Below are positions 2,089 through 56,700 of a stretch of 64,000 nucleotides of DNA, piece by piece; within the stretch, counting starts at the first letter, position 1, and the number at the start of each line of letters is the position of its first letter. The notes under the pieces were generated by a model. It searched no databases, was not told the DNA's origin, and saw only the letters and a program-made list of their open reading frames with translations. The position numbers and the translations under genes are program-made. Source of the stretch: Thermoplasmata archaeon (lineage in GTDB: Archaea > Thermoplasmatota > Thermoplasmata > RBG-16-68-12 > JAJISG01); contig JBHIBO010000009.1 of NCBI GenBank assembly GCA_046759185.1, positions 194-64,193 of the forward strand, given 5' to 3'.

Positions 2089-3291
2089 ATGCACCCCAGC
2101 GAGGCCATCAGGGGCACGGCGGGGGAAGAGCTGCTGGGGAAGACCGTGGTCCTAGCGGTCTCGGGGAGCATCGCTGCCGTCGAGGCGGTCAAGCTCGCCC
2201 GAGAACTGGTTCGTCACGGGGCCGACGTCTATGGGGTCATGAGCGAGGCGGCCCTAGGCATCATCCACCCCAACGCCCTCTGGTTCGCCTCGGGCCGCCC
2301 GCCCGTGGTCGAGCTCGACGGTTCGGTCGCCTACCTGGACCTCTGCGGAAGGCAGGGGAAGGCGGACCTCTTCCTCGTCGCCCCCGCCACGGCGAACACA
2401 ATTTCCAAGATGGCCACCGGGGTGGACGATACCACCGTCACGACGTTTGCCACCACCGCCCTCGGAGCCGGACTCCCGATTCTTGTGGCGCCTGCCATGG
2501 ACGCCGTCATGTTCGACCAGCCCCTTCTCCAAGAGAACATCCGAAAACTGGAGGACTTGGGCGTGGAGTTCGTCGAGCCCCTCCGGGCCGAGGAGAAGGC
2601 CAAGATGGCGGAGGTAGAGTCCGTCGTGGCCCGCACGATGCGTCGACTGGGGCCTCGCGACATGGTGGGACAGAGGGTCCTCGTCATCGCGGGCTCCACG
2701 GCGGAACCCTTGGACGATATTCGTGTTCTTACGAACCGGAGTACCGGTGAGATGGGAATCGAGCTTGCACGGTCGGCCTTCCTCCGTGGGGCCGACGTGG
2801 AACTGTGGTTGGGGCAAGCCTCGTCCGCCGTCCCCTCCTACCTGAGCGCGTGGGGGTTCGAGACGACGGAGGAACTCTTGGGCCGGGTCTCCGAGATTGA
2901 TCACGACCTCTGCGCCGTCCCCGCCGCCATCGGGGACTACGTTCCGGAACCCGTGGAGGGCAAGGTCCCCTCGGGATCTCCTTCTTGGACGGTGGAGCTG
3001 CGCCCGAACGATCGGGTTCTGGAGCGCATCCGGGACGCCTTTTCCGGGACCCTCATCGGGTTCAAGCTCGAGTCGGGCGTCGGGCGGAAGGAGCTCGTGA
3101 GCCGGGCGAAAGGGCGTCTCGAGGAACTGAAGCTGGACTACATGGTCGCCAATGAATGGCAGGACGTGAAGCCAGGCTACACTGAGGCGGTACTCCTCAA
3201 CGGTTCGGGTGACCGCCAGGAACTTAGGGGCTCCAAACGGGAGGTCGCGGCTAGTTTGTGGGGGGCCGTTCTCGGTGGCCTCGCAGGGTAG
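2089..3291 (+). CDS. coaBC: Bifunctional phosphopantothenoylcysteine decarboxylase / phosphopantothenate-cysteine ligase (CoaBC, Dfp)
   Basis: N-terminal flavoprotein domain (KTVVLAVSGSIAAVEAVKLAREL) plus a C-terminal CoaB ligase domain; 400 aa; ATG at 2089. Confidence 0.85.
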   Translation: MHPSEAIRGTAGEELLGKTVVLAVSGSIAAVEAVKLARELVRHGADVYGVMSEAALGIIHPNALWFASGRPPVVELDGSVAYLDLCGRQGKADLFLVAPATANTISKMATGVDDTTVTTFATTALGAGLPILVAPAMDAVMFDQPLLQENIRKLEDLGVEFVEPLRAEEKAKMAEVESVVARTMRRLGPRDMVGQRVLVIAGSTAEPLDDIRVLTNRSTGEMGIELARSAFLRGADVELWLGQASSAVPSYLSAWGFETTEELLGRVSEIDHDLCAVPAAIGDYVPEPVEGKVPSGSPSWTVELRPNDRVLERIRDAFSGTLIGFKLESGVGRKELVSRAKGRLEELKLDYMVANEWQDVKPGYTEAVLLNGSGDRQELRGSKREVAASLWGAVLGGLAG

Positions 3292-5276: not shown

Positions 5277-5340
5277 GGGGCTTCCAAGAAGACGGCTCAG
5301 ATAAAGAAGCCGGAGGGAGAGAGGTCCCCGATTGAAAACC

Positions 5341-5349
5341 TTAATATAA
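5341..5349 (-). promoter_or_regulatory. TATA-box-like element (TTATATTAA on the minus strand) upstream of tmk
   Basis: AT-rich TTATATTAA inside a GC-rich spacer. It falls within the first codons of the ORF-track tmk ORF, which supports the downstream GTG start. Confidence 0.4.
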
Positions 5350-5557
5350 CGCACGTTTCTCCCGCTGCAGCCGGGAGGTTTTGAGGGGGCCGGGCCATCG
5401 CGTTTGAGCTGCGTCGGGACAACAGGCGGTTCGAGGACGTGGAGGACCGAGTCGGTTATTGTCGTCGATGTGGAGCTAGGCTCATTCTTCTCCCCAACGA
5501 CCGAAGGCAGGGTTACTGCTTCGACTGTCTCGATCTGCTCGAGATTGAGCGGTGACG

Positions 5558-6230: not shown

Positions 6231-7040
6231 CTACGCAGGGGGCTGAGAGGTGCGATCGATACGGGCTACCCGGGAGCGGGCGAGACTGATGGCGATGAGG
6301 GCCATCACCGCCGCCACGATGATTCCGAAGGCCGCAGCGACCTCTCCGACGTCTTGGACGAAGAGCTCCCCCAGGCCGGCGAGGAAATTGAAGGTCCCGT
6401 GCATGAGGACGGCCAGGAGGTAGAAGGGGAGGAGGGTCTTGCCGGGCACCAACCTGCTCACGGCCACGCCGTACCCGAAGGTCCCGGTGGCGGAGGCATG
6501 AAGGAGGGCGGAGGAGAAGCTCCGCACACCGATGAGAACCAACGAGGCGCCCAGGCCGCCCGCGGCGAAGGCGACGGCCCCGAAGGCCAGGTTCTCCGTG
6601 GCCGCGAACCCGAGCCCGGCGGAGGCACCGTACACGATGCCGTCCTCCACTTCGTTGATGCTTTCCGCGACCCGGAAGACGCCGAGCCCCTTGGCAAACT
6701 CCTCCGTGACGGGAGCCACGATGATGAGGAGCACCAGGACCCCCAGGTTGAGCTGAGATTCCAGGGCATCGACGAGGCCGACGTGGATGTGGCGGAGCAG
6801 GAAGGTTCCGGCCTCGAGAAGGACCGTGGCGAGGAGGAGGCTCAGAATGACGGCGACGATGACCCCGATGAAGGCGCCCCAGAGAAACGCCCGGAACACC
6901 CGCTGCCAGGGCTCCCTATCGTACCGCTCCGAATTCCGGAACCAGGCCACGAAGATGATGGGCGGGAGGAAGGCAAAGAAGATGAGGACCAGGATTACGG
7001 GGATCGAGAGAAGCCCTATCTGGGCGACGATGTCGATCAT
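6231..7040 (-). CDS. PrsW-family intramembrane metalloprotease
   Basis: Multi-TM protein with the EEFAKG (EExxK) motif and downstream FxxxH/HxxxN-like motifs typical of PrsW (DUF2324). Confidence 0.65.
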   Translation of the reverse strand: MIDIVAQIGLLSIPVILVLIFFAFLPPIIFVAWFRNSERYDREPWQRVFRAFLWGAFIGVIVAVILSLLLATVLLEAGTFLLRHIHVGLVDALESQLNLGVLVLLIIVAPVTEEFAKGLGVFRVAESINEVEDGIVYGASAGLGFAATENLAFGAVAFAAGGLGASLVLIGVRSFSSALLHASATGTFGYGVAVSRLVPGKTLLPFYLLAVLMHGTFNFLAGLGELFVQDVGEVAAAFGIIVAAVMALIAISLARSRVARIDRTSQPPA

Positions 7041-9682
7041 GTGGGTTTCGTTTCCTCCAGCGCGGCGTGGGCGGCGGCAAGGCGCGCCACGGGGACCCTG
7101 AAGGGGGAACAGGACACGTAATCCAGGCCGAGGTCGTGGCAGAGAGCGATGCTCCGGGGCTCACCGCCGTGTTCGCCGCAGATACCGACCTTCAGGTCCG
7201 AGCGGGTGGCGCGTCCCTTCTGTACGGCGATTCGCATGAGTTCCCCCACCCCCTTCGCGTCCAAGACCTCAAACGGGTTCTCCTCCAGGATCCCCTCCTC
7301 CAAGTAGTGCGCCAAGAACTTTCCCTCGGCGTCGTCCCGACTGAACCCGTACGTGGTCTGGGTCAGGTCGTTGGTCCCAAAGGAGAAGAACTCCGCGTCC
7401 CGGGCGATCTCGTCGGCCGTCAGGGCACCTCGGGGGATCTCGATCATGGTTCCGAAGGCGTAGGGGACCTCGAGTCCCCGCTCCTTCATGACCTCATCGG
7501 CCACGCGAACAAGCTCCTCCTTCACCCGAGCCAGCTCGTTCGGGTGGCCCACGAGGGGAATCATGATCTCGGGGAGGACGTCGACTCCCTTCGCTGCGAG
7601 GTCGCAAGCCGCCTCCAAGATGGCCCGCACCTGCATCTCGTTGATTTCGGGGTAGAGGAGGCCGAGACGGCAGCCCCGGAGCCCCAGCATGGGATTGGCC
7701 TCTCGGAGGGCTGCCACTCGCTCCAGGAGCGCTTCCTTGGCGCGAAGGCCCTCCCCGCCGCCTCCGTGACGAAGTTCCGTGACTTCCACAAGCAGGTCCT
7801 CGAAGCTCGGGAGGAATTCATGGAGGGGCGGGTCCAGGAGCCGTATGGTGACCGGCCGTCCCTCCATCTCCTTCAGGATGCCCACGAAGTCCCCCCGCTG
7901 GAGGGGCAGGAGTCGTTCCAGCGCCCGGAGTCGCTCCTCGCGGGAGGTTGCGAGAATCATCTCCTGCATGACCGGGAGCCTGTCGGCCGCCATGAACATG
8001 TGTTCCGTGCGGCAGAGCCCGATTCCCTCGGCCCCCATTTCCCGAGCCCGGGCGGTGTCTTCGGGGGTGTCCGCGTTGGCGCGCACACCCAGGCGTCGGA
8101 TGCCGTCCGCCATCTCGAGGAGGCTCCGGAACTCCGGGGTCATCTCTGGCTCCACGAGGGGGGCTTCCCCCAGGACCACCCGGCCCGTCGTGCCGTCGAT
8201 GGTGAGGAGGTCCCCTTGCTGTACCACCCGCTCCCCCACGGTGAAAGACCCAGCTCCATAATCGATACGGAGCGCCTCGCAGCCCGTCACACACGGCTTG
8301 CCCATGCCCCGGGTGACGATGGCCGCGTGGGAGGTGCGGCCACCACGGCCCGTGAGGACTCCCTGGGCCGCTACGATGCCATGGATGTCGTCCGGGGTGG
8401 TCTCGAGGCGGACGAGGATGACGGGGTCTCCCCTCGACGCCGCCTCTTCCGCTTCCGCCGGATCGAACACCACGGCGCCCACGGCGGCCCCTGGGGAGGC
8501 GTTTAGACCCGTGGCCAGGACCTCCACCTCGGCGTTCGGGTCGATCTGCCGGTGGAGAAGCCGTTCGACCTGCTCCGGCGTCACGCGGTGGACGGCCTCC
8601 TCCGCGGCGATGAGCCCCTCCTCCGTCATGTCCACGGCCGTCTTCACCGCGGCACCTGCCGTCCGTTGGCCCGTCCGGGTCTGCAGCATGTACAGACGGG
8701 CCTCTTCGATGGTGAATTCGATGTCCTGGATGTCTCGGAAGTGATCCTCCAGCCGCTCGGCGATCCGAGAAAGCTCTTCGAAAATCGGGGGCATCTGCTC
8801 CTTGAGTCGGCGGATGGGCTGCGGGGTCCGAATGCCCGCGACCACGTCCTCGCCCTGGGCATTGAGGAGATACTCCCCGTACAGGACCCGTTGACCGGTA
8901 GCGGGGTCTCGCGTGAAGGCGACGCCCGTTCCGCTATCGTCACCCCGGTTGCCGAAGACCATGACCTGGACGTTCACGGCGGTGCCTAGGTCCTCTGGGA
9001 TGTCGCTCACGGCCCGGTATTTCACCGCCCGCGCGCTGTTCCACGACCGGAAGACGGCGGCGATCGCTTCCCAAAGCTGGTCATGGGGATCCTGGGGGAA
9101 CGACTTCCCTTGGGCGTCGAAGACCCCCTTGTAGGCCTCCAGGACCCCTCGCCAGGCGTCGCCGTCCAGCTCGGTATCGTCCTCGACGTCGGCGGAGGCC
9201 TTGGCCTCCTCCAGATGTTCCTCGAACAGGGAACGGTGGAGCCCCACGACGGTATCGCCAAACATGGAAAGGAGGCGGCGGTAGCTGTTGAGCGCAAAAC
9301 CCTCGTCCCCGGTTTGGCGCGCCAGTCCCTCAACCGTCTCGTCGTTCAAACCCAGGTTCAGAACGGTGTCCATCATCCCAGGCATGGAGACGGCACCGCC
9401 AGAACGGACCGAGACGAGGAGGGGATTCTCGGGATTACCGAACTCCCGTCCGGCTGCCTCTTCGAGTTCCCGAAGGTGTGCCTCCACCTCTTCCCTCAGC
9501 CCCGCAGGGAGTTCCTCGGATTCCAGGTACGCCCTGCAGGCGTCCGTCGTGATTGTGAAGCCGGGGGGTACGGGGAGGCCGAGGCCGGTCATCTCCGCCA
9601 GACCGTACCCCTTTCCCCCGAGGGTCGCTTTGTCCTGTCCGACACCCTCCTGGAAGCTGTAGACAAACCGCCGCATGGCCAC
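7037..9682 (-). CDS. ppdK: Pyruvate, phosphate dikinase
   Basis: 881 aa. N-terminal ATP-grasp (KATLGGKGYGLAEM), central phospho-His domain (GGRTSHAAIVTRGMGKPCV), C-terminal PEP-utilising TIM-barrel domain (CRTEHMF). Overlaps the PrsW start by 4 nt. Confidence 0.9.
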   Translation of the reverse strand: MAMRRFVYSFQEGVGQDKATLGGKGYGLAEMTGLGLPVPPGFTITTDACRAYLESEELPAGLREEVEAHLRELEEAAGREFGNPENPLLVSVRSGGAVSMPGMMDTVLNLGLNDETVEGLARQTGDEGFALNSYRRLLSMFGDTVVGLHRSLFEEHLEEAKASADVEDDTELDGDAWRGVLEAYKGVFDAQGKSFPQDPHDQLWEAIAAVFRSWNSARAVKYRAVSDIPEDLGTAVNVQVMVFGNRGDDSGTGVAFTRDPATGQRVLYGEYLLNAQGEDVVAGIRTPQPIRRLKEQMPPIFEELSRIAERLEDHFRDIQDIEFTIEEARLYMLQTRTGQRTAGAAVKTAVDMTEEGLIAAEEAVHRVTPEQVERLLHRQIDPNAEVEVLATGLNASPGAAVGAVVFDPAEAEEAASRGDPVILVRLETTPDDIHGIVAAQGVLTGRGGRTSHAAIVTRGMGKPCVTGCEALRIDYGAGSFTVGERVVQQGDLLTIDGTTGRVVLGEAPLVEPEMTPEFRSLLEMADGIRRLGVRANADTPEDTARAREMGAEGIGLCRTEHMFMAADRLPVMQEMILATSREERLRALERLLPLQRGDFVGILKEMEGRPVTIRLLDPPLHEFLPSFEDLLVEVTELRHGGGGEGLRAKEALLERVAALREANPMLGLRGCRLGLLYPEINEMQVRAILEAACDLAAKGVDVLPEIMIPLVGHPNELARVKEELVRVADEVMKERGLEVPYAFGTMIEIPRGALTADEIARDAEFFSFGTNDLTQTTYGFSRDDAEGKFLAHYLEEGILEENPFEVLDAKGVGELMRIAVQKGRATRSDLKVGICGEHGGEPRSIALCHDLGLDYVSCSPFRVPVARLAAAHAALEETKPT

Positions 9683-11431: not shown

Positions 11432-12178
11432 TCATGAAAACTGCTGATCGTCCGCAATGAGGACGCCGTCGGGGAGCCGAAGCTCCACGTCATCCACGAA
11501 CCCGAACCAATACACCACGATCCCGTCGCCGAAGAGGTCCACGTAGGGGCTCAGCTGCCGGCGCACGTGGCGTTTGATTTCGTACGGGTCGCCGAAGCTG
11601 GCCTTGCTTTCAATCCACTGGACGCGCCGTCCATCGAAGTCCAGAGGATCTTGGAGCAAGGCGTCGGGGGTCTTGTCGAACTTCTCTCGGAGTTCGGCCT
11701 CCTTCCGGAAGGGAACGTCTTGGGCTTCCAGCCACTGCCAGAGGCGCGCCTCCCCCCAGGCCCCTCGCTGGTATTGGCGGTCCGTTCCTGCGGGGGAGTA
11801 GATGAGATCTTCCTCGGTCGTTTCGCGGAGCTCCCTCCGGAGCCGATCGTCCTCCACGCTGTCCAGGTCCTTGACCATCTTCCAGAACCGCTTCCGGGAC
11901 ACACCCTCCTCCCCCATCACAAGCAGAGCGAGAAGCATGGGAGGGAAATTGCGTCGGCGGGCGAGCTCCACGAAGGATGTCCCCTGCCTCCACTGATGAC
12001 GGAGCCGCCGGCTCTGGCGCTTCACCTTGTAGAAACGCTTCGTGGCGTCCCGGACGACCCGCTGCGTGTAGATCACGGTGAGGAGCTCCTCGTCGTAGGA
12101 CGATGTCCGAATCAGCCGTTCGAGGTCCCTTCGGGTCTCCAGGCCTCGGTACAGCCCCTTGTAAGTCTCGTGGTCCAT
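11432..12178 (-). CDS. TPD-motif protein, CDIN1/C15orf41-like predicted PD-(D/E)xK nuclease
   Basis: Contains the family's name-giving KTPD motif (FDKTPDALL) and a C-terminal D...ExK nuclease motif (DFDGRRVQWIESK); 248 aa. Confidence 0.5.
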   Translation of the reverse strand: MDHETYKGLYRGLETRRDLERLIRTSSYDEELLTVIYTQRVVRDATKRFYKVKRQSRRLRHQWRQGTSFVELARRRNFPPMLLALLVMGEEGVSRKRFWKMVKDLDSVEDDRLRRELRETTEEDLIYSPAGTDRQYQRGAWGEARLWQWLEAQDVPFRKEAELREKFDKTPDALLQDPLDFDGRRVQWIESKASFGDPYEIKRHVRRQLSPYVDLFGDGIVVYWFGFVDDVELRLPDGVLIADDQQFS

Positions 12179-12208: not shown

Positions 12209-12219
12209 CTTTATTAAAG
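12209..12219. promoter_or_regulatory. Palindromic TATA-like element CTTTATTAAAG in a divergent intergenic region (could serve both the TPD-nuclease gene and the MBL-hydrolase gene)
   Basis: An AT-rich perfect palindrome 31-41 nt upstream of the minus-strand start at 12178. Confidence 0.35.
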
Positions 12220-12318
12220 CGTTATGAGGCCAGTTTTCGTTCCGGGAGGCGTGTTGGCCCGCCCCATCCCTTGGAAAAGCGTAAAGAGAAGCCCTCCATC
12301 CGGAGACTGGGTGGAGCC

Positions 12319-20927: not shown

Positions 20928-22391
20928 TCAGTAGCGGGTAAGCGTGGGATCGACCTGCGCTGCCCAAGCATCGATGCCCCCCGCCATGTTCCAGACGCGG
21001 GTGAACCCCAGGTCCCGTAGGAACTGGGTGATGCGTGCGCTGCGGGATCCGGTGTGGCAGTGGACGACGATGTTGTCTGCCGTGCTGAGTTCCCCGACCT
21101 TGTACGGGACCTCCCCCACCGGCATGAGTTTCGCGCCGTCGATGTGAACGATCTGCCACTCGATCGGCTCCCGGACGTCCAGGAGTGTGGCGTCGCCCTT
21201 CTGGACCATCACCGCTGCTTCCTGCACATCGACCTGGAACTCGCTCGCCAGGGCGTTCTCCGCCCCCAGGCCGCAGAAGGCCTCGTAGTCGATCAGCTCC
21301 GTCACCGTTGGGTTCTCCCCGCAGACGGGACAGCCCGGGTCCTTCCGGAGCTTCAGCTCCCGGAAGCTCATCTTCATCGCATCGAAGAGCAGCAGGCGTC
21401 CGACCAGGGTGTCCCCTTTCCCGAGGAGGACCTTCAGTGCCTCGTTGGCTTGGAGACTCCCCACGATCCCTGGCAGGACTCCTAGGACGCCGCCCTCCGC
21501 GCAGCTGGGCACGAGGCCCGGCGGCGGGGGCTCGGGGTAGAGGCACCGGTAGCAGGGACCCTGCGACGCGTCGAAGACGGAGACCTGCCCCTCGAAGCGG
21601 AAGATGCTTCCGTAGATGTTGGGCTTGCCCAGGATGACGCTCACGTCGTTGACGAGGTACCGGGTCGGGAAGTTGTCCGTCCCGTCGATGATGACGTCAT
21701 AGTCTCCCAGGATGTCGAGGGCGTTCTCACTGGTCAGGCGAACCTCGTGGGACTCCACCTGCACCCCGGGGTTGAGCGCTTCTAGCCTCTCCTGGGCCGC
21801 CTTCAGCTTGGGCCGGGCGAGGTCGTTGGTGTTGAAGAGGACCTGACGCTGGAGGTTGCTTTCGTCCACGGCGTCAAAATCCACCAGGCCGAGGCGGCCC
21901 ACGCCCGCGGCGGTGAGGTACATCCCCAGGGGAGCCCCGAGACCGCCTACGCCCACGATCAGGGCGCTGGATCGACGGAGGGTCTCTTGCCCCTCCAGAC
22001 CCACTTCCGGGAGGATCAGGTGTCGGCTGTAGCGCTTAATCTCTTCCTGTGTCAACCCCGCCTGGGGAGGCGGGCGCGGGCCGAGGGTAACGTTGGGGAA
22101 GGCGCCGCCGGCCACGCTGGGCACGATGATGACGGTGTCCCCCTCGGTCACGGAGGTGGCCTCCCGTTCCAGGTAGCGAATGTCCTCCTCGTTCACGTAG
22201 ACGTTCACGAAATTTCGGAGCTTGCCGTTGTCCCCGAGGAGGTACCGTTTGAGGGGTTCGTACTCTACGGCGAGCCCGTCCAAGAGCTCCTGGATCGTCT
22301 CTCCCTCCACGTCCAGGCTGTCTCGGTTCCCCACGTACTGCCGCAACGGCGTGGGAATTCGGATGGTCACGTTCGGCTTACTCATGCGCAC
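20928..22391 (-). CDS. Tri-domain fusion: MoaD/ThiS/CysO-like ubiquitin-like domain (ends ...PSVAGG) + MoeZ/MoeB-type E1 adenylyltransferase + C-terminal rhodanese
   Basis: Residues 1-96 form a beta-grasp Ubl ending in the GG motif typical of MoaD (GDTVIIVPSVAGG). Then comes the E1 domain (HLILPEVGLEGQETL, LIVGVGGLGAP, CxxC...CPVC), then a rhodanese domain with its active-site Cys (VVHCHTGSRSAR). Confidence 0.8.
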   Translation of the reverse strand: MRMSKPNVTIRIPTPLRQYVGNRDSLDVEGETIQELLDGLAVEYEPLKRYLLGDNGKLRNFVNVYVNEEDIRYLEREATSVTEGDTVIIVPSVAGGAFPNVTLGPRPPPQAGLTQEEIKRYSRHLILPEVGLEGQETLRRSSALIVGVGGLGAPLGMYLTAAGVGRLGLVDFDAVDESNLQRQVLFNTNDLARPKLKAAQERLEALNPGVQVESHEVRLTSENALDILGDYDVIIDGTDNFPTRYLVNDVSVILGKPNIYGSIFRFEGQVSVFDASQGPCYRCLYPEPPPPGLVPSCAEGGVLGVLPGIVGSLQANEALKVLLGKGDTLVGRLLLFDAMKMSFRELKLRKDPGCPVCGENPTVTELIDYEAFCGLGAENALASEFQVDVQEAAVMVQKGDATLLDVREPIEWQIVHIDGAKLMPVGEVPYKVGELSTADNIVVHCHTGSRSARITQFLRDLGFTRVWNMAGGIDAWAAQVDPTLTRY

Positions 22392-22824
22392 TCTCTCCTA
22401 CTTTTCCACGACGTTTAAACCTCAAGGGCTCCTCCACCATCTCCTCCTCTTCCCGGCGCCAAGCGGTCACGTCTCCCGACGCCTCTAACGCCGTGGCCAG
22501 GATGAGATAGGTGTACCACGGCCACGCCCGTTCGGTATCGTAGCGGGAGGGGGCGGCGGGGTGGTCGGGGTGGGAGTGATAGAACCCGAGCATGAGGAGG
22601 CCGCGATCGCGGGCCTCCCGATCCGCGTCGACGATGTCCCGAGGATCGATTTCGTAGCGGTCGCGTGTCGTCGCGGCGCGGAGATTGGTGGCCCGCCGGA
22701 TCGCCGTGACCTTGCGAACCTCTCCATCGAGGCCCAGAAGCACGCCGCACACCTCCGAGGGGTAGCCTTCTCGGGCGTGCTCTCGAAGTTCCTGGAGCAA
22801 CCTCTCCTCGAGTTCGAGCATCAA
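22378..22824 (-). CDS. JAMM/MPN+ metalloprotease (Mec+-like)
   Basis: JAMM motif E...HSHPDHPAAPSRYD (HxHx7SxxD) plus an upstream conserved Glu; 148 aa; overlaps the neighbouring genes at both ends. Confidence 0.8.
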   Translation of the reverse strand: MMLELEERLLQELREHAREGYPSEVCGVLLGLDGEVRKVTAIRRATNLRAATTRDRYEIDPRDIVDADREARDRGLLMLGFYHSHPDHPAAPSRYDTERAWPWYTYLILATALEASGDVTAWRREEEEMVEEPLRFKRRGKVGESAHE

Positions 22825-23762
22825 CCCTCCTCCCAGTAGCGTTCCGTCAGGTAGCGGTCGCCTGCGTCAGGAAAGACGGTGACGACAGTCCCCCTTCGGA
22901 GCCCCTTCGCGACTTGCAGTGCGGCGGCGAGGGCCGCACCCGATGAGGTCCCCACGAGAAGGCCTTCCCGCTCGGCCAGAAGGCGGGCGTGCCGCTGGGC
23001 TTCCTCCGTCTCCACGAAGAGGGTGTCGTCCTGAATCGTGGCGTCAAAGATTCCGGGCCGTATGGAGCTCTCCATGTGCTTCAGTCCCTCGATGCCATGG
23101 AGGGGTTCTCCGGGTTGGATACCGAGGATTTGGACCGAGGGGTCGTCTTCCCTGAGGCGTCGCCCGGTGCCCACCAAGGTCCCGCCCGTCCCCACCCCTG
23201 CAACGAAGTGGGTTATCTCGCCCCCCGTCTGATCGAGGATTTCCGGTGCGGTGCCCTCGTAGTGGGCCGCCCAATTCGCCGGGTTGTTGTATTGATCCAC
23301 GTAGAGGTACGCCCCGGGGTCCTCCCGATGGATCCGTGCGGCCACCCGCTGGGCCCCGTCGGTTCCCGCCAACGGGTCCGTCAGGACGAGTTCTGCGCCG
23401 AAGGAGCGCATGATGGTCTGACGGCCCCGACTCGCGTTGGAGGGGAGGACCAGCTTGGTGGGGATGCCCGTCGCGGCGCCGAGCATGGCTAGGGCGATGC
23501 CCGTGTTGCCGGAGGTGGCTTCCAGCAGGGTCATCCCCGCGCGGTAGGCGCCCGAAGCCAGGGCGTCGCGGATCATCCACAGCGCGGGTCGGTCCTTGAC
23601 GCTGCCCCCCGGGTTGAACCACTCGGCCTTGGCACGAAGCGTGACCCCATCCAGATCCCAAGACGCGGCATCCAGTCGGAGGAGCGGCGTGTTTCCAATC
23701 AAGGCTGTGATCGAAGCCTCCTGGAGCCTCCGGCCTGGCGTGCTTCCCACGCTGTCCTGCAT
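22821..23762 (-). CDS. cysM: Cysteine synthase (CysM/CysK family, PLP fold type II)
   Basis: PLP-lysine motif NPGGSVKDRPA, plus TSGNTGIALA and GVGTGGTLVG. Confidence 0.85.
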   Translation of the reverse strand: MQDSVGSTPGRRLQEASITALIGNTPLLRLDAASWDLDGVTLRAKAEWFNPGGSVKDRPALWMIRDALASGAYRAGMTLLEATSGNTGIALAMLGAATGIPTKLVLPSNASRGRQTIMRSFGAELVLTDPLAGTDGAQRVAARIHREDPGAYLYVDQYNNPANWAAHYEGTAPEILDQTGGEITHFVAGVGTGGTLVGTGRRLREDDPSVQILGIQPGEPLHGIEGLKHMESSIRPGIFDATIQDDTLFVETEEAQRHARLLAEREGLLVGTSSGAALAAALQVAKGLRRGTVVTVFPDAGDRYLTERYWEEG

Positions 23763-24137
23763 CTACGTGCCGTCCCCTTGGTAGGCCTTGAGGCCGATGC
23801 GCAGGGTGCTCAGGGAGAGGAGGGCACACTTGAGGCGAGCGTGGCTGATGGGGATGCCGAGGGTCTGCAGGACGGCGTCCTCGTCGATCTCGAGGACCTC
23901 CTTCAGGGTCTTCCCCTTGAGCTTCACGGTGAGCATGGAGGCGGAGGCCTGGCTGATGGCGCACCCTTCTCCCTGGAACTTCACGTCCTCCACGACGGCG
24001 TCGTCATCGAGCTTGAGGTAGAGGGCAATCTCGTCCCCGCACAGGGGGTTGTCCTCCCGGGCCCAGATATCGGCTTCCGCCAGGTCTCCCTTGTTCCGGG
24101 GGTTTTGGTAGTGATCCAGGATGGCCTCCTGATACAT
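23763..24137 (-). CDS. sufU: SufU/IscU-like Fe-S cluster assembly scaffold (NifU N-terminal type)
   Basis: Conserved motifs NPLCGDEIALYL, GEGCAISQASASM and HARLKCALL. Start at the ATG at 24137. The upstream 240 codons of the ORF-track ORF overlap sufS out of frame and are spurious. Confidence 0.8.
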   Translation of the reverse strand: MYQEAILDHYQNPRNKGDLAEADIWAREDNPLCGDEIALYLKLDDDAVVEDVKFQGEGCAISQASASMLTVKLKGKTLKEVLEIDEDAVLQTLGIPISHARLKCALLSLSTLRIGLKAYQGDGT

Positions 24138-24145
24138 CTCGTAGC

Positions 24146-25423
24146 TCACAGCCGGAAGACCTCCTTGACCCTCTCCAAGCCCTCGGCCAAGCGGTCGGCC
24201 TCGTCCCGGGTGTTGTACACGTAGAAGCTTGCTCGGGTGGTAGCGGGCACGTCCAGGCGGTCCATGAGGGGCTGAGCGCAGTGGTGACCGGCCCGGACGG
24301 CGATGCCTTCTGCGTCCAGGATCGAGGCGATGTCGTGGGCATGGACCCCCTCGAGCAGGAACGACAGAACGCCGGCTCGCTCTTTCACGTCGGTGGGGCC
24401 GTAGACGTGCAAGCCGTCGATGGCACCGAGCCGCTCCAAGGCATGTGCGCCGAGGACCATCTCGTGCTCTCGGACCCGGTGCATGTCTAACCCCTGGAGG
24501 TAGTCCACCGCGGCCCCGAGGCCGATGGCCCCCACGATGTTGGGCGTTCCTGCCTCGAACTTCCAAGGCAGGTCGTTCCAGCGGGCCCACCCTAGGTGGA
24601 CTTCCCGGATCATCTCCCCACCCCCCAGGAAGGGCTCCATCTCCTCCAGGACCTCCTCCCGCCCACACAGGGCCCCGATGCCCGTAGGCCCCAGCATCTT
24701 GTGCCCGGAGACGGCAAGGAAGTCGGCATCGATGGCCTGGGCGTCCACGGGCATGTGGGGGGCCGACTGGGCGGCGTCGACGAGGCAGAGGGCGTCGACC
24801 TCGTGGGCCCGCTTGGCGATCTCCGCCACGGGATTGATCGTCCCCAACACGTTGGAGCACTGGGTGACCGTGACGAGCTTGGTCTTCGAGGTAATGAGCT
24901 CGTCGTAGTCCTCCATTTTCAGCGTGCCGTCATCGTGAACATCCACCCACTTGAGGACCACGCCCTTCTGGTCCTGCAGGAAGTACCAGGGGATCGTGTT
25001 GGAGTGGTGCTCCATCACCGTGGAGACGATCTCGTCTCCCTCTTGGAGGCCCCCCTTCATCCCCCAGCCGTAGGCCACGGCGTTGATGGCCTCCGTCGTC
25101 CCGCTGGTGTAGACGACCTCTTCGCGAGCCCGGACGTTGAGGAAGGCCTGGAGCTTGTCCCGGGCGTCCTCGTACTCCTCCGTTGCCCGCTCCCCGAGTT
25201 CGTGGATGGCCCGATGGACGTTGGCCGTGTAGTGGTCCAGGTACTCGTTCATCTTCTCCACCACGGCCCGGGGTTTCTGGGACGTGGCCGCGTTGTCCAA
25301 GTAAACCAGCCGCTTCCCGTGGACCTCCTGGTCCAGAACGGGGAAGTCCTTCCGGACGACTCGTGCGTCCAAAACGCCCTCCTTCACCTTGCCCACCATC
25401 GCTATGCCTCCTCTCGCAACCAA
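24146..25423 (-). CDS. sufS: Cysteine desulfurase SufS (class II aminotransferase fold)
   Basis: Motifs YLDNAATSQKP and SGHKMLGPTGIGAL (PLP-Lys), and a C-terminal catalytic Cys region (RAGHHCAQP); 425 aa. Confidence 0.85.
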   Translation of the reverse strand: MVARGGIAMVGKVKEGVLDARVVRKDFPVLDQEVHGKRLVYLDNAATSQKPRAVVEKMNEYLDHYTANVHRAIHELGERATEEYEDARDKLQAFLNVRAREEVVYTSGTTEAINAVAYGWGMKGGLQEGDEIVSTVMEHHSNTIPWYFLQDQKGVVLKWVDVHDDGTLKMEDYDELITSKTKLVTVTQCSNVLGTINPVAEIAKRAHEVDALCLVDAAQSAPHMPVDAQAIDADFLAVSGHKMLGPTGIGALCGREEVLEEMEPFLGGGEMIREVHLGWARWNDLPWKFEAGTPNIVGAIGLGAAVDYLQGLDMHRVREHEMVLGAHALERLGAIDGLHVYGPTDVKERAGVLSFLLEGVHAHDIASILDAEGIAVRAGHHCAQPLMDRLDVPATTRASFYVYNTRDEADRLAEGLERVKEVFRL

Positions 25424-26145
25424 TCGTACCCTCGTTCCTCCAGCTCGGCCGCCAACTCTCTGCCGCCCGATCGGGCGATACGCCCCTCCATCAAGACGTG
25501 CACTTCCTGGGGGAGGATGTACCGGAGGATGCGCTGATAGTGCGTGATGAGGAGGATCCCCGTACCCTCCCGGGCGAGCCGATTCATCGCGTCGGCGACG
25601 ACCTGGAGGGAGTCGATGTCGAGCCCGGAGTCCGTCTCGTCCATGACGGCCAAGGGAGGACGCAACAGGGCCAACTGAAGGACCTCCGCTCGCTTCTTCT
25701 CGCCCCCGGAGAATCCCTGGTTCACGTACCGGTGGAGAAACGCATCCTCGATCCCCAGATGTTCGAGCTCCTGCCGCACCTGCGCGTCGAACGCCTCCCC
25801 GTTGGACTCCTCGGGCCGCAGGGACCGGTAGGCCTCCCGCAGGAACCGCTTCATCTTGACCCCCGGAAGGTCGGTGGGGTATTGGAAGCCTAGGAACAGG
25901 CCGCGACGGGCCCGTTCGTCTGTGTCCATGGCCAGGAGGTCCTCTCCATCCAGAAGCACTTGGCCGTCGAACACGCGGTATCCAGGATGCCCCAGCAGAA
26001 CGTACGCGAGGGTGGACTTCCCACTCCCGTTGGGCCCCATGAGGGCGTGAACCTCTCCCTGCCGAACCGAGAGGCTGATGCCTCGGAGGATCTGCTTCTC
26101 CTCGATGCCGGCACGGAGGTCTAGGATGTCCAACTGGGCTGGCAT
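25402..26145 (-). CDS. sufC: Fe-S cluster assembly ATPase SufC (copy 1)
   Basis: ABC ATPase with Walker [10 protein letters not shown] and signature [14 protein letters not shown]. Confidence 0.85.
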   Translation of the reverse strand: MPAQLDILDLRAGIEEKQILRGISLSVRQGEVHALMGPNGSGKSTLAYVLLGHPGYRVFDGQVLLDGEDLLAMDTDERARRGLFLGFQYPTDLPGVKMKRFLREAYRSLRPEESNGEAFDAQVRQELEHLGIEDAFLHRYVNQGFSGGEKKRAEVLQLALLRPPLAVMDETDSGLDIDSLQVVADAMNRLAREGTGILLITHYQRILRYILPQEVHVLMEGRIARSGGRELAAELEERGYDWLREEA

Positions 26146-26169
26146 GAACGCTCCCGAACCCTGATTCGC

Positions 26170-26182
26170 ATAACGGCGTTAT
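26170..26182. promoter_or_regulatory. Palindrome ATAACG-G-CGTTAT about 25-35 nt upstream of the sufC (copy 1) start: candidate operator
   Basis: Perfect 6-bp arms flank a single central base. The identical motif, in the same gene-relative orientation, occurs upstream of the divergent sufC copy 2. Confidence 0.5.
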
Positions 26183-26281
26183 CGGTTAAGTACTTCTTCT
26201 CTCCCATGCGGCCCCGAAACAATCGAAAGCCGACTTTAAGGGTTTGTGACAGGTGAGGGGAGGCGACGGTCGCAAGGACTC

Positions 26282-27016
26282 TCACGCTGGGTTGCGCGAG
26301 GCCTCCTTGCCGAGCACTTCAGAACGAATCTGGACGCAGGCCTCGCAGATGGCCTTCTTCCGGTCCGGATCGGAGACGCCTCCTGCGAGGCGCTCCTCCA
26401 AGCCGTCGAGCTGCTCCTCCACGACAGGGTGGCTGCGAAGGGTCGCGTCCTCCCCCCGCCGCCCGCTCATGTATTGGCTTACGGCGGGTTGGCTGACTCC
26501 CAGAAGGGAGGCTACACGTACCTGGCCCCGCTCGGGGACCAGGCGTCGAGCGATCTCGGAGCGAACGAAGGGAAGCAGACGTTCGACCACGAAGGTCTCA
26601 CACGGCTGCTTGGGGAACCCGCCAGGCTCCCCGAGGGCGAGGAGGAATTTGGGTTTCGAGACGCCGCCGAGGATGCACGAGCACGGACCGACGCCCTCCA
26701 TTCTCCGGTAGGAGGTGCATGCCCCACAGATCGCGGCCGTCAGCTTGGGCCCCGACAGGCCGTTCGCGATCCGGGCAGCCAATCGTTCCCCATACTTGCC
26801 CAGTTGTGGGTTTCGCTGTGGGGAGCGCCGGCCGCGCCGCTTCGTGATATAGTGGCTGACCGCCGCCTGGGTGAGCCCCATACGCTCGGCGATATCCCGC
26901 TGGCTCAGCTCGTGCTCGGTAGCGAGGCTCTGGGCGATGCCGGCGCGGAGCGCAGGAAGAAACGCCGGGACGGAGTGCTCACACCATTGGCGCCTACCGA
27001 GGTCGTCCATGTTCAA
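26282..27016 (-). CDS. Putative transcriptional regulator with two HTH domains and conserved cysteine clusters (candidate Fe-S/redox-sensing regulator of the suf locus)
   Basis: Two HTH-like segments (SQRDIAERMGLTQAAVSHYITKRRG and VRVASLLGVSQPAVSQYMSGRRG). Cys clusters CGACTSY...GPCSC and CEAC. Located between the two divergent suf units. Confidence 0.55.
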   Translation of the reverse strand: MNMDDLGRRQWCEHSVPAFLPALRAGIAQSLATEHELSQRDIAERMGLTQAAVSHYITKRRGRRSPQRNPQLGKYGERLAARIANGLSGPKLTAAICGACTSYRRMEGVGPCSCILGGVSKPKFLLALGEPGGFPKQPCETFVVERLLPFVRSEIARRLVPERGQVRVASLLGVSQPAVSQYMSGRRGEDATLRSHPVVEEQLDGLEERLAGGVSDPDRKKAICEACVQIRSEVLGKEASRNPA

Positions 27017-27097
27017 TACGGTGTGATATGGAGGGTGACAGATAAAAAGTTGCGGACCCTTTATCGTCGGCGAGAGCCGGGCTGGTTACGCTTAAAT

Positions 27098-27112
27098 AAT
27101 AACGCCGTTATT
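27098..27112. promoter_or_regulatory. Palindrome AATAACG-C-CGTTATT directly abutting a TTAAATAAT TATA-like element upstream of sufC copy 2: candidate operator
   Basis: Same ATAACG-N-CGTTAT core as at 26170-26182. It sits about 42 nt upstream of the sufC2 ATG and is adjacent to AT-rich TATA-like sequence. Confidence 0.5.
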
Positions 27113-27153
27113 GATTTCATGGGGTCAGGGAGACCATCGAGAGGTCGTCAGGA

Positions 27154-27912
27154 ATGTCGGTGCTCGAAATCAAGAATCTACACGCCGGGGTCGATGGAAA
27201 GGCCATCCTCCACGGCCTCAATCTCACCGTCAGGGCCGGGGAGATTCACGCCCTCATGGGGCCCAACGGCAGCGGCAAATCGACGCTCTCCCATGTCTTG
27301 ATGGGGCACATCCGCTACGAGGTCTACGAGGGCGACGTCCTTCTCGACGGGACATCCATTCTCGGGCTCCTGCCTCACTACCGGGCGCGGCTTGGCCTCT
27401 TCCTCGGGTTCCAATACCCTCAGGAGGTCCCCGGGGTCAAAATGGGGAGCTTCCTGAACGCCGCCTACAAGCGGATGCATCCGGAGGAGGAGATGGAGAT
27501 CCCCGAGTTCTTCGCCTACGTGGGTGAGCGGATGAAACTGCTGAAGCTGGATCCAAGCTTCGGGGCCCGGTACCTGAACGACGGCTTCTCGGGCGGTGAG
27601 AAGAAACGGGCGGAGGTTCTCCAGATGCTCGTCCTCGCGCCTCGAATTGCTGTCCTGGACGAGAGCGACTCGGGCCTGGATATCGACGCGCTCAAGACGG
27701 TAGCCGAAGCCATCGACCACTATGCCGGTCCGGAGGTGGGCATCCTGTTGATTACCCACTATCAACGGCTCCTCGACTACGTGATCCCCGACTTCGTCCA
27801 CGTCCTGGTGGATGGCAAGATCGCCCTCTCAGGGGGCAGCGACCTGGCCCACAAGCTGGAGGAGCTCGGCTACAAGTGGATAAAGGAAGAAACCACTGTG
27901 GAGGTGGTCTAG
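27154..27912 (+). CDS. sufC: Fe-S cluster assembly ATPase SufC (copy 2)
   Basis: Walker [10 protein letters not shown] and signature [14 protein letters not shown]; paralogous to copy 1. Confidence 0.85.
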
Positions 27913-27913
27913 C

Positions 27914-29314
27914 ATGGCCCTGGAGCCCGAGATGGCGAACCGAGAGTACAAATACGGCTTCCGAGACGACATCCAGTACGTTTACCGGACGCCCAAGGGT
28001 CTCAGCGAGGACGTGGTCCGGGAGATCTCCGGGCTGAAGAACGAGCCCGAGTGGATGCTCAAGATGCGCCTTCGCGGCTACAACCACTTCCTGGAGCGGG
28101 TCATGCCCGATTGGGGCGGGGACCTCCACGACATCGACTTCGATGACATCAGCTATTACCTCAAGCCCTCGGAGAAGGAGGGTCGAACCTGGGAGGAGGT
28201 CCCAGAGAAGATTCGGGAGACCTTCGACCGTCTGGGGATTCCGGAGGCCGAGCGCAAGTTCCTGGCCGGGGTGGGGGCCCAATATGACTCCGAGGTGGTC
28301 TACCACAAAACCCTGAAACACCTCGAGGAACAGGGCGTCGTCTTCATGGGCACGGACGCCGCGCTGAAGGAGTACCCCGAGATCTTCCAGGAGTACTTCG
28401 GGACCCTGGTGCCACCGGAGGACAACAAGTTCGCCGCCCTGAACACCGCCGTCTGGAGCGGCGGAAGCTTCGTCTACGTTCCCAAGGGAGTCAAACTGGA
28501 GCAGCCGCTGCAGGCCTACTTCCGCATCAACTCGGAGAACATGGGACAGTTCGAGCGCACCCTCATCGTCGGGGACGAGGACAGCTACTTCCACTACATC
28601 GAGGGCTGCACGGCTCCCACGTACACGACCAACTCTCTCCACGCCGCCGTCGTGGAGGTGATCGCACGACCCGGGGCGAACGTCCGCTACACAACGCTGC
28701 AGAACTGGTCGGACAACGTGTACAACCTGGTCACGAAGCGGGCCTACGCCTACGAGAACAGCACGGTGGAGTGGGTGGACGCCAACATCGGGAGCCGGCT
28801 GACCATGAAGTACCCGTCCGTCTACCTCGTGGGCAAGGGGGCCAAGGCGGAGATCCTGTCCGTGGCCTACGCGGGGAAGGGGATGCACCAGGACGCCGGG
28901 GCCAAGGCCATCCACCTCGCATCCGACACCCAGTCCCGGATCACGAGCAAGTCGGTCTCCCAGAACGGCGGACGGGTGACCTACCGGGGACAGCTGGCCG
29001 TCGCCAAGGGGGCCGAGAACGTGAAATCCAACGTCCGTTGCGACGCCCTCATGCTCGATGCCGTTTCCCGCTCGGACACCTACCCCTACATGGACATCGA
29101 GGAGGAGGACGCCTCCATCACCCACGAGGCGACGGTGGGGAAGATCAGCGAAGACGTGCTCTACTACCTAATGTCCCGGGGCCTCACGGAGAACGAGGCG
29201 ATGAACATGGTGGTCCTGGGCTTCCTGGAGGTCTTCACCAAGGAGCTGCCCATGGAGTACGCTGTGGAGTTTAACCGCCTCATCAAGATGGAGATCGAGG
29301 GAAACGTCGGATAG
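27914..29314 (+). CDS. sufB: Fe-S cluster assembly protein SufB
   Basis: 466-aa SufB/SufD beta-helix family protein with SufB-type N-terminal region; starts 2 nt after the sufC2 stop. Confidence 0.9.
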
Positions 29315-29341: not shown

Positions 29342-30649
29342 ATGGAATTCGAACTGGGGTACGCCACCGAGGAGCGGGTCGGCGAGCTCTCCGCAAGACG
29401 CGGTGAGCCGGCCTGGTTACACAAGGATCGGGCCCGGGCGCTGGACGCCTTCCTCGTGATGCCGGTGGAGCCCCTAGCCCTCTTCACGCGTCACACGGAT
29501 CTGCGGGGTGTGGAGGTCGGGAAGGTCACCCCCGTGGAAGACGGGCAGGCGGAAGCGGTCGTACCGGTCTACGATGGCGAGGACAGGGCAGCCTTCGCCC
29601 GCGTGAGCGAGGGCCGACTTCGAGAGGTCCGAATCACCGAGAAACTCCGGGGACGCGACTTCTACCTGAACGAGGCCCTCGGCCTCCTCGAGGAGCGGCC
29701 CAAGGTAGCGAAGAGCCTGCTGGCCCGACCCGATTCCCTGCCCAAGGACGACAAGTTCGGGATGATGAGCCGCGCCCTGTTCTCGACCGCCCTTGTCCTC
29801 TCTGTGCCGCCCCGCGTAGACATCACGCGTCCCATTCACCTCCAGTGGTCGTTTGCGGACCCCGCGTCTGCGCTGCACACCCGTACTCTCATCCACCTCG
29901 GGGCCGGGAGCCGCGTCTCCGTGATCGAGGAGTTCGTCTCGGATGGCGCCGGCGGGGACATGGAGGAACAGAGCCTCTTCGGGAACGCCACAGAGGTGTA
30001 CCTGGAGGAAGGTGCCCGCCTGGACTATGTAGCCATCGAGCGGTTCGCCAACCACGTTGTGTCCTTCTTCACTCGGCAGGCGACCGTCGGTCCCGATGGG
30101 AGCTTCCATCAGGCCTTGGGGAGTTTCGGTGGGTTCCTGACGAAGTCTCGGGCGGACAGCATCCTAGCGGGCCAGGGCTCGCGGATCCGACAGGTGGAGG
30201 TGGTCTACGGCACGGGCCAGGAACGGTACGATAACACGAACTTCGTCACCCACCGGGGCCGTGACTCGGTTAGCGACCTCCTTTCCAAAGCCGTCATGCA
30301 AGAGCGGTCTCGCTCGACACTGAAAGGGGTCATCACCATCGAGGAGGAGGCGGGCAACGCCGACTCCTACTTGGGACAGTACTCCATGCTCCTCAGCCGC
30401 AAGTCCAAGTCCACGGCCATCCCCAGCCTGGAGATCAAGACCAACGATGTCCAGCGTGCTCAACACGCGGCGTCCGTCGCCCAGCTCGATGAGGACCAGG
30501 TCTTCTACCTCATGAGCCGGGGGATCCCCAGGGACTCGGCGCGGCGTATGCTCGTCGAAGGTTTTCTGACGCCCATCGTGGAGACGGTACCTCTCCCCGA
30601 TGCTCGGGCCCAACTGTACGATCTTATCGGCACGAAGTGGGTCGCGTAG
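29342..30649 (+). CDS. sufD: Fe-S cluster assembly protein SufD
   Basis: 435-aa SufB/D-family paralogue downstream of sufB. Confidence 0.8.
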   Translation: MEFELGYATEERVGELSARRGEPAWLHKDRARALDAFLVMPVEPLALFTRHTDLRGVEVGKVTPVEDGQAEAVVPVYDGEDRAAFARVSEGRLREVRITEKLRGRDFYLNEALGLLEERPKVAKSLLARPDSLPKDDKFGMMSRALFSTALVLSVPPRVDITRPIHLQWSFADPASALHTRTLIHLGAGSRVSVIEEFVSDGAGGDMEEQSLFGNATEVYLEEGARLDYVAIERFANHVVSFFTRQATVGPDGSFHQALGSFGGFLTKSRADSILAGQGSRIRQVEVVYGTGQERYDNTNFVTHRGRDSVSDLLSKAVMQERSRSTLKGVITIEEEAGNADSYLGQYSMLLSRKSKSTAIPSLEIKTNDVQRAQHAASVAQLDEDQVFYLMSRGIPRDSARRMLVEGFLTPIVETVPLPDARAQLYDLIGTKWVA

Positions 30650-30650
30650 G

Positions 30651-30962
30651 ATGGCGGACCGGGTCCTCCTCGGCAAGCTCGGTGACTTTGACGAGGGTCG
30701 CATCCACGGCCTCGAGGTCGAGGGACGCCAGCTCATTCTCGTCAACCTCGGAGGGACCCTTCACGTGCTCGACGGAATCTGCACCCACGCCTATGCCGAG
30801 CTCGCCATGGGGTTCCTGACCGGGGAGTATGTGCGCTGTCCTCTGCACCTGTCCCAATTCGACGTGGAGACGGGCGAGGCGATCGGCCCTCCTGCGGAGG
30901 AGCCGCTGCAAACGTACCCCGTGGAGGTAGAGGGCGACTCGGTCTACGTCCTCGTCGGCTGA
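30651..30962 (+). CDS. Rieske [2Fe-2S] ferredoxin-like protein
   Basis: Rieske motifs CTHAYAEL and CPLHLSQF (CxH...CxxH). ATG starts 2 nt after the sufD stop. Confidence 0.75.
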   Translation: MADRVLLGKLGDFDEGRIHGLEVEGRQLILVNLGGTLHVLDGICTHAYAELAMGFLTGEYVRCPLHLSQFDVETGEAIGPPAEEPLQTYPVEVEGDSVYVLVG

Positions 30963-56690: not shown

Positions 56691-56700
56691 GGCCCCGAAG

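Follow-up and report, generated by a model that had tools for sequence, protein, structure and literature searches.

A predicted repressor-operator pair shared by the two halves of a split suf locus in a Thermoplasmata archaeon

The subject of this study is a split suf locus, i.e. a locus of genes for iron-sulfur (Fe-S) cluster assembly, within a 64,000-nt stretch of DNA from a Thermoplasmata archaeon (GenBank assembly GCA_046759185.1, contig JBHIBO010000009.1, positions 194 to 64,193; referred to below as the window). Its two operons, headed by the genes sufC1 and sufC2, flank a gene for a cysteine-rich protein with two helix-turn-helix (HTH) modules, and the same 13-bp palindrome lies in front of each sufC gene (Table 1). 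We consider it probable that the palindromes are operators of the protein encoded between them (hereafter the regulator), which would repress both suf units in response to a signal read by its cysteines. The pairing itself, of regulator and palindromes as repressor and operator, can be predicted with considerable confidence. That an Fe-S cluster bound by a Cys-Glu...CxxC set closes a feedback loop is a tentative extension drawn by analogy, which we find plausible without holding it to be probable. The locus offers a simple hypothesis: one 244-residue protein, one 13-bp site and two promoters.

An exact search of the window for ATAACGNCGTTAT gave exactly two matches, at 26170-26182 and 27099-27111; a preliminary description of this DNA had placed the first copy correctly and the second one base off, at 27100-27112. 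Not one of 100 dinucleotide-preserving shuffles of the window contained a match, and a search allowing up to 3 mismatches detected no copy with 1-2 mismatches elsewhere in it. When the relaxed core ATAACNNNGTTAT was used, with up to 2 mismatches, a single additional weak site appeared, at 12213. The two copies lie 24 nt from the ATG of sufC1 (26145) and 42 nt from the ATG of sufC2 (27154); the earlier estimate was about 25-45 nt. Read towards the gene, both are ATAACGCCGTTAT. The identical orientation relative to the gene, to which the preliminary description drew attention, is therefore real in the window; it is uninformative as evidence, however, because the centre base is not conserved in related genomes, where it is either G or C.

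The additional site (12213-12225, ATTAAAGCGTTAT) has 2 mismatches to the core, for which the chance expectation is 2.55. It is situated in the divergent region between a 248-residue open reading frame (ORF; 11432-12178, minus strand) and an ORF resembling a beta-lactamase fold, and it was rejected as an operator, since it looks like a chance match or an ordinary promoter. A further sequence, AAACCTTAATATAACGCACGTTTC (5340-5360), resembles a TFB-recognition element (BRE)/TATA box in the style of the suf promoters and runs into a single ATAACG half-site (5345), upstream of a possible small CxxC...CxxC ORF (about 5440-5555). This half-site was likewise discarded as probably belonging to an ordinary promoter. 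The ORF-based promoter survey of the window served only for spotting AT-rich boxes and is otherwise unreliable, because the G+C content of about 64% gives rise to spurious antisense ORFs. A scan of the window for bacterial promoters and terminators found nothing, as expected for an archaeon.

In both suf promoters, and in all of the genomes compared below, the operator begins 0-2 bp past a conserved TATA-like box, the putative TATA element. At sufC2 the box CTTAAATA ends at 27098 and directly adjoins the ATAACG that begins at 27099, so the earlier remark that this copy abuts a TATA-like box holds; in relatives, the box (CTTATATA) abuts or overlaps the operator. At sufC1 the two are separated by 2 nt (TACTTAAC-CG-ATAACG), and the alignment of this promoter (A3) shows that TTAA is invariant and TAC nearly so (TACTTAAT in relatives).

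GTDB species genomes were searched with a profile built from the regulator, which gave 71 loci; L001-L011 among them carry two-module orthologues that are 54-83% identical to the regulator of the window. Comparison was thus possible for twelve genomes including the window (164.7 kb in total), or for eleven in the case of sufC1, as the contig of L004 ends before this gene. The order Rieske-sufD-sufB-sufC2, regulator, sufC1-sufS-sufU-cysK-JAB is kept in all of L001-L011. The palindrome is present ahead of sufC2 in 12/12 genomes, 42-45 nt from the start codon, and ahead of sufC1 in 11/11, at a distance of 21-24 nt. The invariant columns in both promoter alignments (A2 and A3) fall in the TATA-like box, in the two arms (ATAAC and GTTAT) and in the start codon, and the rest has diverged; the start codon aside, the TATA-like box together with ATAACnnCGTTAT forms the sole conserved block in either promoter region. 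Since the three central bases vary (GCC, GGC, ACC, GCT, GGT and ACT were seen), the conserved core is ATAAC-N3-GTTAT; the longer form previously proposed, ATAACG-N-CGTTAT, is exact in both copies of the window but does not describe what is conserved. The preliminary description had also raised the questions of whether the motif is scattered at random and whether it is conserved upstream of suf orthologues. Every site in the 164.7 kb with no more than one mismatch to ATAACNNNGTTAT sits at a suf promoter, and the motif recurs there at a fixed spacing in each genome that could be inspected. This twelve-genome footprint argues that the palindrome and the regulator form a functional pair.

The middle gene had been described as encoding a Cys-rich double-HTH protein, and the analysis of its product bore this out, with two HTH_3-like motifs and eight conserved cysteines. 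Its TTG start at 27016 is kept in relatives, in contrast to the ATG at 27010. The two halves of the protein are homologous (37% identity, E 5e-15) and occupy the 244 residues entirely. Each module consists of an N-terminal helix opening with an invariant Cys-Glu, the HTH, an RRG turn and a long helix bearing CxxC, and module 1 has an additional P-C-x-C (CxC) motif. The recognition helices are TQAAVSHY and SQPAVSQY. Among 22 aligned homologues, C10, C95, C98, C110, C112, C137, C222 and C225 are invariant or nearly so, and the recognition-helix residues G45, Q48, A49, V51, S52, H53 and Y54 of the first module and Q174, P175 and Y180 of the second are invariant. In Pfam, module 1 matches HTH_3 (PF01381) at 34.6 bits (cut-off 23), whereas module 2 passes the threshold of YdaS_toxin (32.3 bits, cut-off 30) and fails that of Cro (23.1 bits, cut-off 32.7). 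Neither Rrf2 (PF02082), which was absent from the 16 Pfam HTH families matched at E<=0.01, nor ThiN (PF10120) was detected by Pfam. No curated NCBIfam family covers the regulator: there were four sub-threshold generic matches, none of them a SufR model, the best being an ArsR/SmtB HTH (27.2 bits, cut-off 55). A sequence-profile search of the PDB returned generic HTH matches only (lambda-repressor-like, Cro, HipB, ArsR). The AlphaFold2 model is, with good confidence, a single all-helical body (predicted local distance difference test score, pLDDT, 87; predicted template modelling score, pTM, 0.84), for which Foldseek found no structural neighbour of the whole chain in the PDB at E<0.1 (best E 0.2). 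Consisting of two fused tandem copies of a single HTH module, the regulator is most likely a single-chain pseudo-dimer.

The closest homologues of the regulator are encoded by metagenome-assembled genomes (MAGs) of uncultured Thermoplasmata. A hidden Markov model search of 1.84 billion representatives (clusters at 50% identity) detected 1906 relatives, of which 489 had E<=1e-10. Apart from three proteins with two modules and a few of about 310-325 residues, almost every one is a single module of about 100-135 residues. Where the sources name them at all, they are called "hypothetical", "predicted transcriptional regulator" or "XRE family". The family signature, i.e. P-C-E, LPxxR, (S/T)Q(A/P)AVS(H/Q)Y, RG and CxxC, is present in both halves of the regulator, and the cysteine motifs are common in single modules (N-terminal CE in 127 and CxxC after the HTH in 116 of 141). 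Outside the Thermoplasmata, single-module genes of five other phyla (Bathyarchaeia, Nitrososphaerota, Methanomethylicia, Njordarchaeota, and Halobacteria as the label of one MAG) are preceded by a TATA box with ATAAC-N3-GTTAT directly after it (e.g. CTTTTATATATAACGGTGTTATATATAAAGC in L043). Of the 21 sites with no more than one mismatch in the 60 non-orthologous loci, 19 are situated upstream of a family gene, at a distance of up to 200 nt. By its distribution, the ATAAC-N3-GTTAT box is a feature of this protein family. Because it tracks the family across phyla, the regulator can be predicted to bind the suf sites that neighbour its gene, and this is the strongest argument for the pairing.

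The Thermoplasmata also carry single-module paralogues of a second type (L016, L020-L024, L026, L028, L029, L033, L034, L038, L045, L046, L050, L052, L055, L057, L058, L064, L066, L068 and L070), which start with MLQPxE, lack the N-terminal Cys and end in RFCxYH...CxxC. Their own upstream box, about 40-80 nt before the gene, is TTAAATAC-N3-GTTATA, i.e. a variant AATAC-N3-GTTAT, and genes for a TrmB-family regulator and glycosyltransferases are conserved beside them. In some cases the MAG is one that also encodes the two-module suf regulator.

Several other members of the family were encountered in distinctive surroundings. Pairs of family genes separated by about 5.5 kb, each gene being preceded by one to three boxes, occur in Nitrososphaerota-labelled and Methanomethylicia MAGs: L025 (about 2940-3060 and 8900-9060), L039 (5866 and 11801), L044 (5845-5993) and L047 (5997 and 11813-11929). 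One of the paired genes is divergent from a gene for a 543-residue double ABC ATPase, as identified by Pfam, and the genes between the two members of a pair resemble, by appearance, YcaO/TfuA-type and methanogenesis-marker genes. In a Bathyarchaeia MAG (L030, 4717-7625), a double overlapping box lies upstream of a single-module gene that is flanked by a class-V aminotransferase/SepSecS-like gene on one side and by ThiI (THUMP) on the other, another sulfur-transfer context. P0030 (L072, 4928-6368) is a distant homologue with two modules (34% identical), encoded after a hemerythrin-domain gene and next to multicopper oxidase and DsbD-like genes; no ATAAC-N3-GTTAT box was found within 14 kb of it, so it probably differs in specificity, and it lends no support. 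P0101, a two-module protein of 226 aa from an A+T-rich organism with CE...CRIC in each half, appears to have arisen by a separate tandem duplication of this module.

The module also occurs in longer proteins. L047 encodes a 323-residue protein, recovered with the regulator profile, in which it is fused to ThiN (PF10120), and a near-consensus box (ATAAGTAGGTTAT) is located at the start of this gene. The HTH-ThiN architecture was found in Methanomethylicia, Thermoprotei and haloarchaea; Rodionov and co-workers are said to have described it in 2017 as that of ThiR. Comparison by BLASTP of the regulator modules with the N-termini of HTH-ThiN proteins gave E values of 1e-10 and 1e-8 for P0316, and of 1e-7 and 1e-6 for P0339. 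By this homology, the module is the DNA-binding domain of ThiR-type fusions as well. The likeness to ThiR lies in the homologous DNA-binding module: the regulator has no ThiN ligand domain and carries two such modules per chain, and its predicted target is suf, whereas that of ThiR is the thiamine genes. The haloarchaeal HTH-ThiN relatives lack all of the cysteines, so these residues are an addition not required by the fold.

As regards the mechanism, we infer DNA binding by the regulator, the sign of regulation, binding as a monomer and the nature of the signal. One chain would bind one palindrome, the recognition helices TQAAVSHY and SQPAVSQY lying on the half-sites ATAAC and GTTAT. The operator, which begins 0-2 bp past the TATA-like box, would end ahead of the expected transcription start; a protein bound in this interval would block the recruitment of TFB/RNA polymerase and possibly of TBP. 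Among the known archaeal regulators (MDR1, Phr, TrmB, NrpR, LrpA), repressors sit between the TATA box and the start, while activators sit upstream of BRE/TATA. Repression and release would be joint for the scaffold operon (sufC2-sufB-sufD-Rieske) and the sulfur-supply operon (sufC1-sufS-sufU-cysK/M-JAB-ThiS/ThiF/rhodanese). The signal would be read at the conserved cysteines, i.e. the Cys-Glu...CxxC set of each module together with the CxC of module 1. An Fe-S cluster delivered at sufficient SUF output would hold the protein on its sites, and derepression would follow if the cluster were lost, a feedback resembling that by holo-SufR or IscR in bacteria. The view expressed in the preliminary description, that a shared operator is the signature of a repressor, gains support from the comparative evidence, with repression itself being a prediction.

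Four considerations weigh against this proposal. The half-site centres are separated by 8 bp, a short distance if two HTHs are to occupy successive major grooves. A consensus operator is absent from the promoter of the regulator itself. The regulon may extend beyond the sites described here, as the analysis covered 64 kb of this genome. Finally, the cysteines could form a structural metal site and not an Fe-S sensor, since their motifs are found family-wide, including in HTH-ThiN fusions and in members beside unrelated genes.

The last of these points bears on a reading that we regard as less likely but as a serious alternative, in which the repressor-operator pair is the same and the signal is something other than an Fe-S cluster, such as a thiol/disulfide or Zn-thiolate redox switch comparable to the CxxC switch of Pyrococcus SurR, or in which the cysteines are structural and control is exerted at the protein level or by a partner. 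It draws on the family-wide occurrence of the cysteine motifs, also where the neighbouring genes are unrelated or the protein has a ThiN sensor domain of its own, on the location of the CxxC pairs inside helices in the predicted model, and on the additional C-x2-H...C-x2-C set, resembling a Zn site, of many single modules. Against it, no other domain of the two-module protein is a candidate sensor, the genomic context of the protein is Fe-S assembly, where bacteria use cluster-sensing feedback, and the Cys-less relatives show that the fold can do without a structural metal site.

The remaining alternatives concern the pairing itself or its sign. MAGs with the two-module gene also encode single-module paralogues with the near-identical helix ITQAAVSHY (L018/L009, L054/L010, L019/L008), so the palindrome might be bound by another factor such as one of these, with the two-HTH protein regulating something else. 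We judge this improbable, however: the regulator gene and both sites occur together in 12/12 genomes, the box co-occurs with family genes at 19/21 sites outside the orthologues, the boxes of the paralogues are of the distinguishable type AATAC-N3-GTTAT, and no paralogue was found in the 64-kb window. There is very little to be said for assigning the palindrome to the core promoter or to a hairpin in the RNA of the 5' leaders. It does overlap or abut the TATA-like box, and a 5-bp stem could form in principle; but such an A/U-rich stem with a 3-nt loop is marginal, and the arms are invariant, with variation limited to the three central bases and no compensatory changes. Moreover, a TATA box centred near -26 would put both palindromes upstream of the expected start, the box tracks the genes of one protein family across phyla, and its exact form is not found elsewhere in the window, the other promoters of which were not surveyed systematically. 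It is similarly far-fetched, in our opinion, that the protein binds these sites and activates the suf operons: some archaeal regulators act in both directions, depending on the position of the site, but sites between the TATA box and the start are in the position typical of repressors.

If the predicted repression by the regulator is accepted, its nearest functional parallel is SufR, the [4Fe-4S]-binding repressor of the suf operon in cyanobacteria and actinobacteria; a divergent arrangement of sufR and sufBCDS is known in cyanobacteria. Shared with SufR are (i) a regulator gene at the suf locus, (ii) a palindromic operator at the suf promoter, (iii) conserved cysteines and (iv) the expected Fe-S feedback. 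The two are not related in sequence, however: SufR has an ArsR/DeoR-type winged HTH and is a homodimer with a C-terminal Cys4 domain, whereas the regulator has a Cro/XRE-like HTH in tandem duplication, would act at promoters of the archaeal TATA/TFB type and has a predicted operator of different sequence. With IscR and other Rrf2 proteins (NsrR, RirA, RsrR) it may share a ligand set similar to three Cys plus a carboxylate per DNA-binding unit, here the invariant Cys-Glu with CxxC, as well as the (here predicted) control of Fe-S biogenesis genes, but it is all-helical, of another fold and from an archaeal lineage, and it has no Rrf2 domain. SurR of Thermococcales (Pyrococcus), an ArsR-type winged-HTH protein with an N-terminal CxxC redox switch, binds GTTn3AAC. 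Like the regulator, SurR is archaeal, has two DNA-binding domains per chain and a CxxC, and is linked to sulfur/redox physiology; its site, like the predicted one of the regulator, is a short GTT/AAC palindrome with a 3-nt spacer. The half-sites are nevertheless inverted here (AAC-N3-GTT inside ATAAC-N3-GTTAT), and SurR was absent from the matches of the regulator in both the PDB profile search and Foldseek. The Cro/C1 proteins (XRE, HTH_3) resemble it in the HTH_3 match above the Pfam threshold, the nearest PDB sequence matches and the short palindromic (here predicted) operator, but differ in that the modules of the regulator are fused in tandem, each with additional long helices bearing the putative Cys ligands. 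Taken together, these comparisons support a system that would work like SufR or IscR while belonging to neither family, i.e. a non-homologous analogue.

The literature search found work on bacterial SufR, IscR and RisR, and neither an archaeal suf regulator nor a paper on the motif. The regulator is thus a candidate for an archaeal regulator of Fe-S assembly for which no characterised counterpart was found. With more doubt, we suggest that it might be the first recognisable archaeal-type sensor-regulator of Fe-S biogenesis, a pseudo-dimer that would sense Fe-S or thiol status through one Cys-Glu...CxxC site per module and shut off both suf operons at an ATAAC-N3-GTTAT box adjoining the TATA element. 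On the same doubtful footing, it might give entry to a large, ancient and unnamed family of at least 489 clusters (at 50% identity) in at least six phyla, which would include the ThiR domain, share one type of operator and be mostly autoregulated. Two HTHs fused in tandem would by nature form a dimer within one chain, and the evolution of palindrome recognition following such a fusion could be studied on this protein. As the box precedes hundreds of small unnamed HTH genes, it could be used to reconstruct regulons across the family, including the relation to ThiR. Furthermore, the predicted co-regulated set, i.e. two SufC paralogues, SufS/U and a cysteine route of the CysM-JAB-ThiS/ThiF type, with ferritin-like genes in relatives, suggests how sulfur supply may be coupled to cluster assembly in uncultured sediment Thermoplasmata.

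Table 1. Positions of the genes and predicted regulatory elements of the suf locus in the window
Feature	Position	Strand	Remarks
ThiS-ThiF-rhodanese fusion	20928..22391	-	Pfam
JAB metalloprotease	22378..22824	-	Pfam
PALP (CysK/CysM-like) gene	22821..23762	-	Pfam
sufU	23763..24149	-	TIGR01994, 117 bits (cut-off 92.5)
sufS (cysteine desulfurase)	24146..25423	-	TIGR01979, 579 bits
sufC1	25402..26145	-	First gene of the sulfur-supply operon; TIGR01978, 319 bits (cut-off 212.8)
Predicted operator, sufC1 promoter	26170..26182		ATAACGGCGTTAT on plus strand, ATAACGCCGTTAT on minus strand; exact match; kept in 11/11 genomes
TATA-like box, sufC1 promoter	26185..26192	-	TACTTAAC (TACTTAAT in relatives); alignment A3; putative TATA role
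Relic of a deleted ferritin-like gene pair	26193..26246	-	Ferritin promoter CAAACCCTTAAAGTCGGC plus the initial 5 codons ATGGGAGAGAAGAAG, joined to the sufC1 promoter
Regulator gene	26282..27016	-	244 codons, TTG start; tandem duplication of an HTH module with Cys
Weak operator-like element	27015..27027		AATACGGTGTGAT; between the TATA box and the start codon of the regulator
Probable TATA box of the regulator promoter	27040..27049	-	CTTTTTATCT; GATAAAA kept in the close clade; putative role
TATA-like box, sufC2 promoter	27091..27098	+	CTTAAATA (CTTATATA in relatives); invariant block in alignment A2; putative TATA role
Predicted operator, sufC2 promoter	27099..27111		ATAACGCCGTTAT; exact match, 0 expected by chance; kept in 12/12 genomes
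sufC2	27154..27912	+	First gene of the scaffold operon; TIGR01978, 315 bits (cut-off 212.8)
sufB	27914..29314	+	TIGR01980, 705 bits
sufD	29342..30649	+	TIGR01981, 213 bits (under the cut-off of 222); Pfam SUFBD_core, 207 bits
Rieske protein	30600..30962	+	PF00355

The promoter of the regulator itself has a probable TATA box (CTTTTTATCT) about 29 nt ahead of the TTG start, a distance from which it follows that the mRNA is probably leaderless. The element AATACGGTGTGAT has one mismatch to AATACNNNGTTAT, the box upstream of the Thermoplasmata single-module paralogues (the AATAC-N3-GTTAT variant), and CAATACGGNGTGATAT is kept in L001-L006 and absent in L007-L011. Given a chance expectation of 0.22 per window, we count it as weak; it may be an autoregulatory site of low strength or a site for a paralogue.

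As shown in Table 1, the gene assignments made with Pfam and NCBIfam match the two divergent suf units, each with its own SufC, of the preliminary description (SufC1 and SufC2 are 56% identical). The gene of the regulator does lie between these units as stated there, but it does not stand apart from both, since it heads the minus-strand unit, being co-directional with sufC1 and divergent from sufC2. This unit extends past sufU to 20928 and includes the PALP, JAB and ThiS-ThiF-rhodanese genes, which overlap or abut one another; the order PALP-JAB-ThiS/ThiF was also found in L002, L003, L005-L007, L009 and L010. We note its resemblance to the CysO/CysM/Mec-type pathway leading to cysteine, on which SufS acts. 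The genes at 20928-23762 look like a sulfur-carrier cysteine-synthesis set co-transcribed with the cysteine desulfurase.

In L006-L008, L010 and L011, two tandem ferritin-like genes (PF00210, with a weak match to archaeal DPS) lie between the regulator gene and the sufC1 promoter (6799-7284 and 7331-7807 in L006, 6770-7878 in L007, 6822-7850 in L010). L005 retains only a fused ferritin remnant of 68 codons (6723-6929), and in the window, L001 and L003 only the ferritin promoter and five codons are left, joined to the sufC1 promoter. The alignment of the window with L005-L007 (A4) confirmed that the relic sequence matches the start of intact ferritin-like genes. Transcripts from the relic promoter would need to read through the sufC1 operator.

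Two further genes of the window were recorded. A gene for a LarC-type nickel-insertion protein (PF01969; 18927-20162) is located just beyond the suf-associated operon, and a single gene for tRNA-Val(CAC) was detected at 56700-56773, with no other RNA gene in the window.

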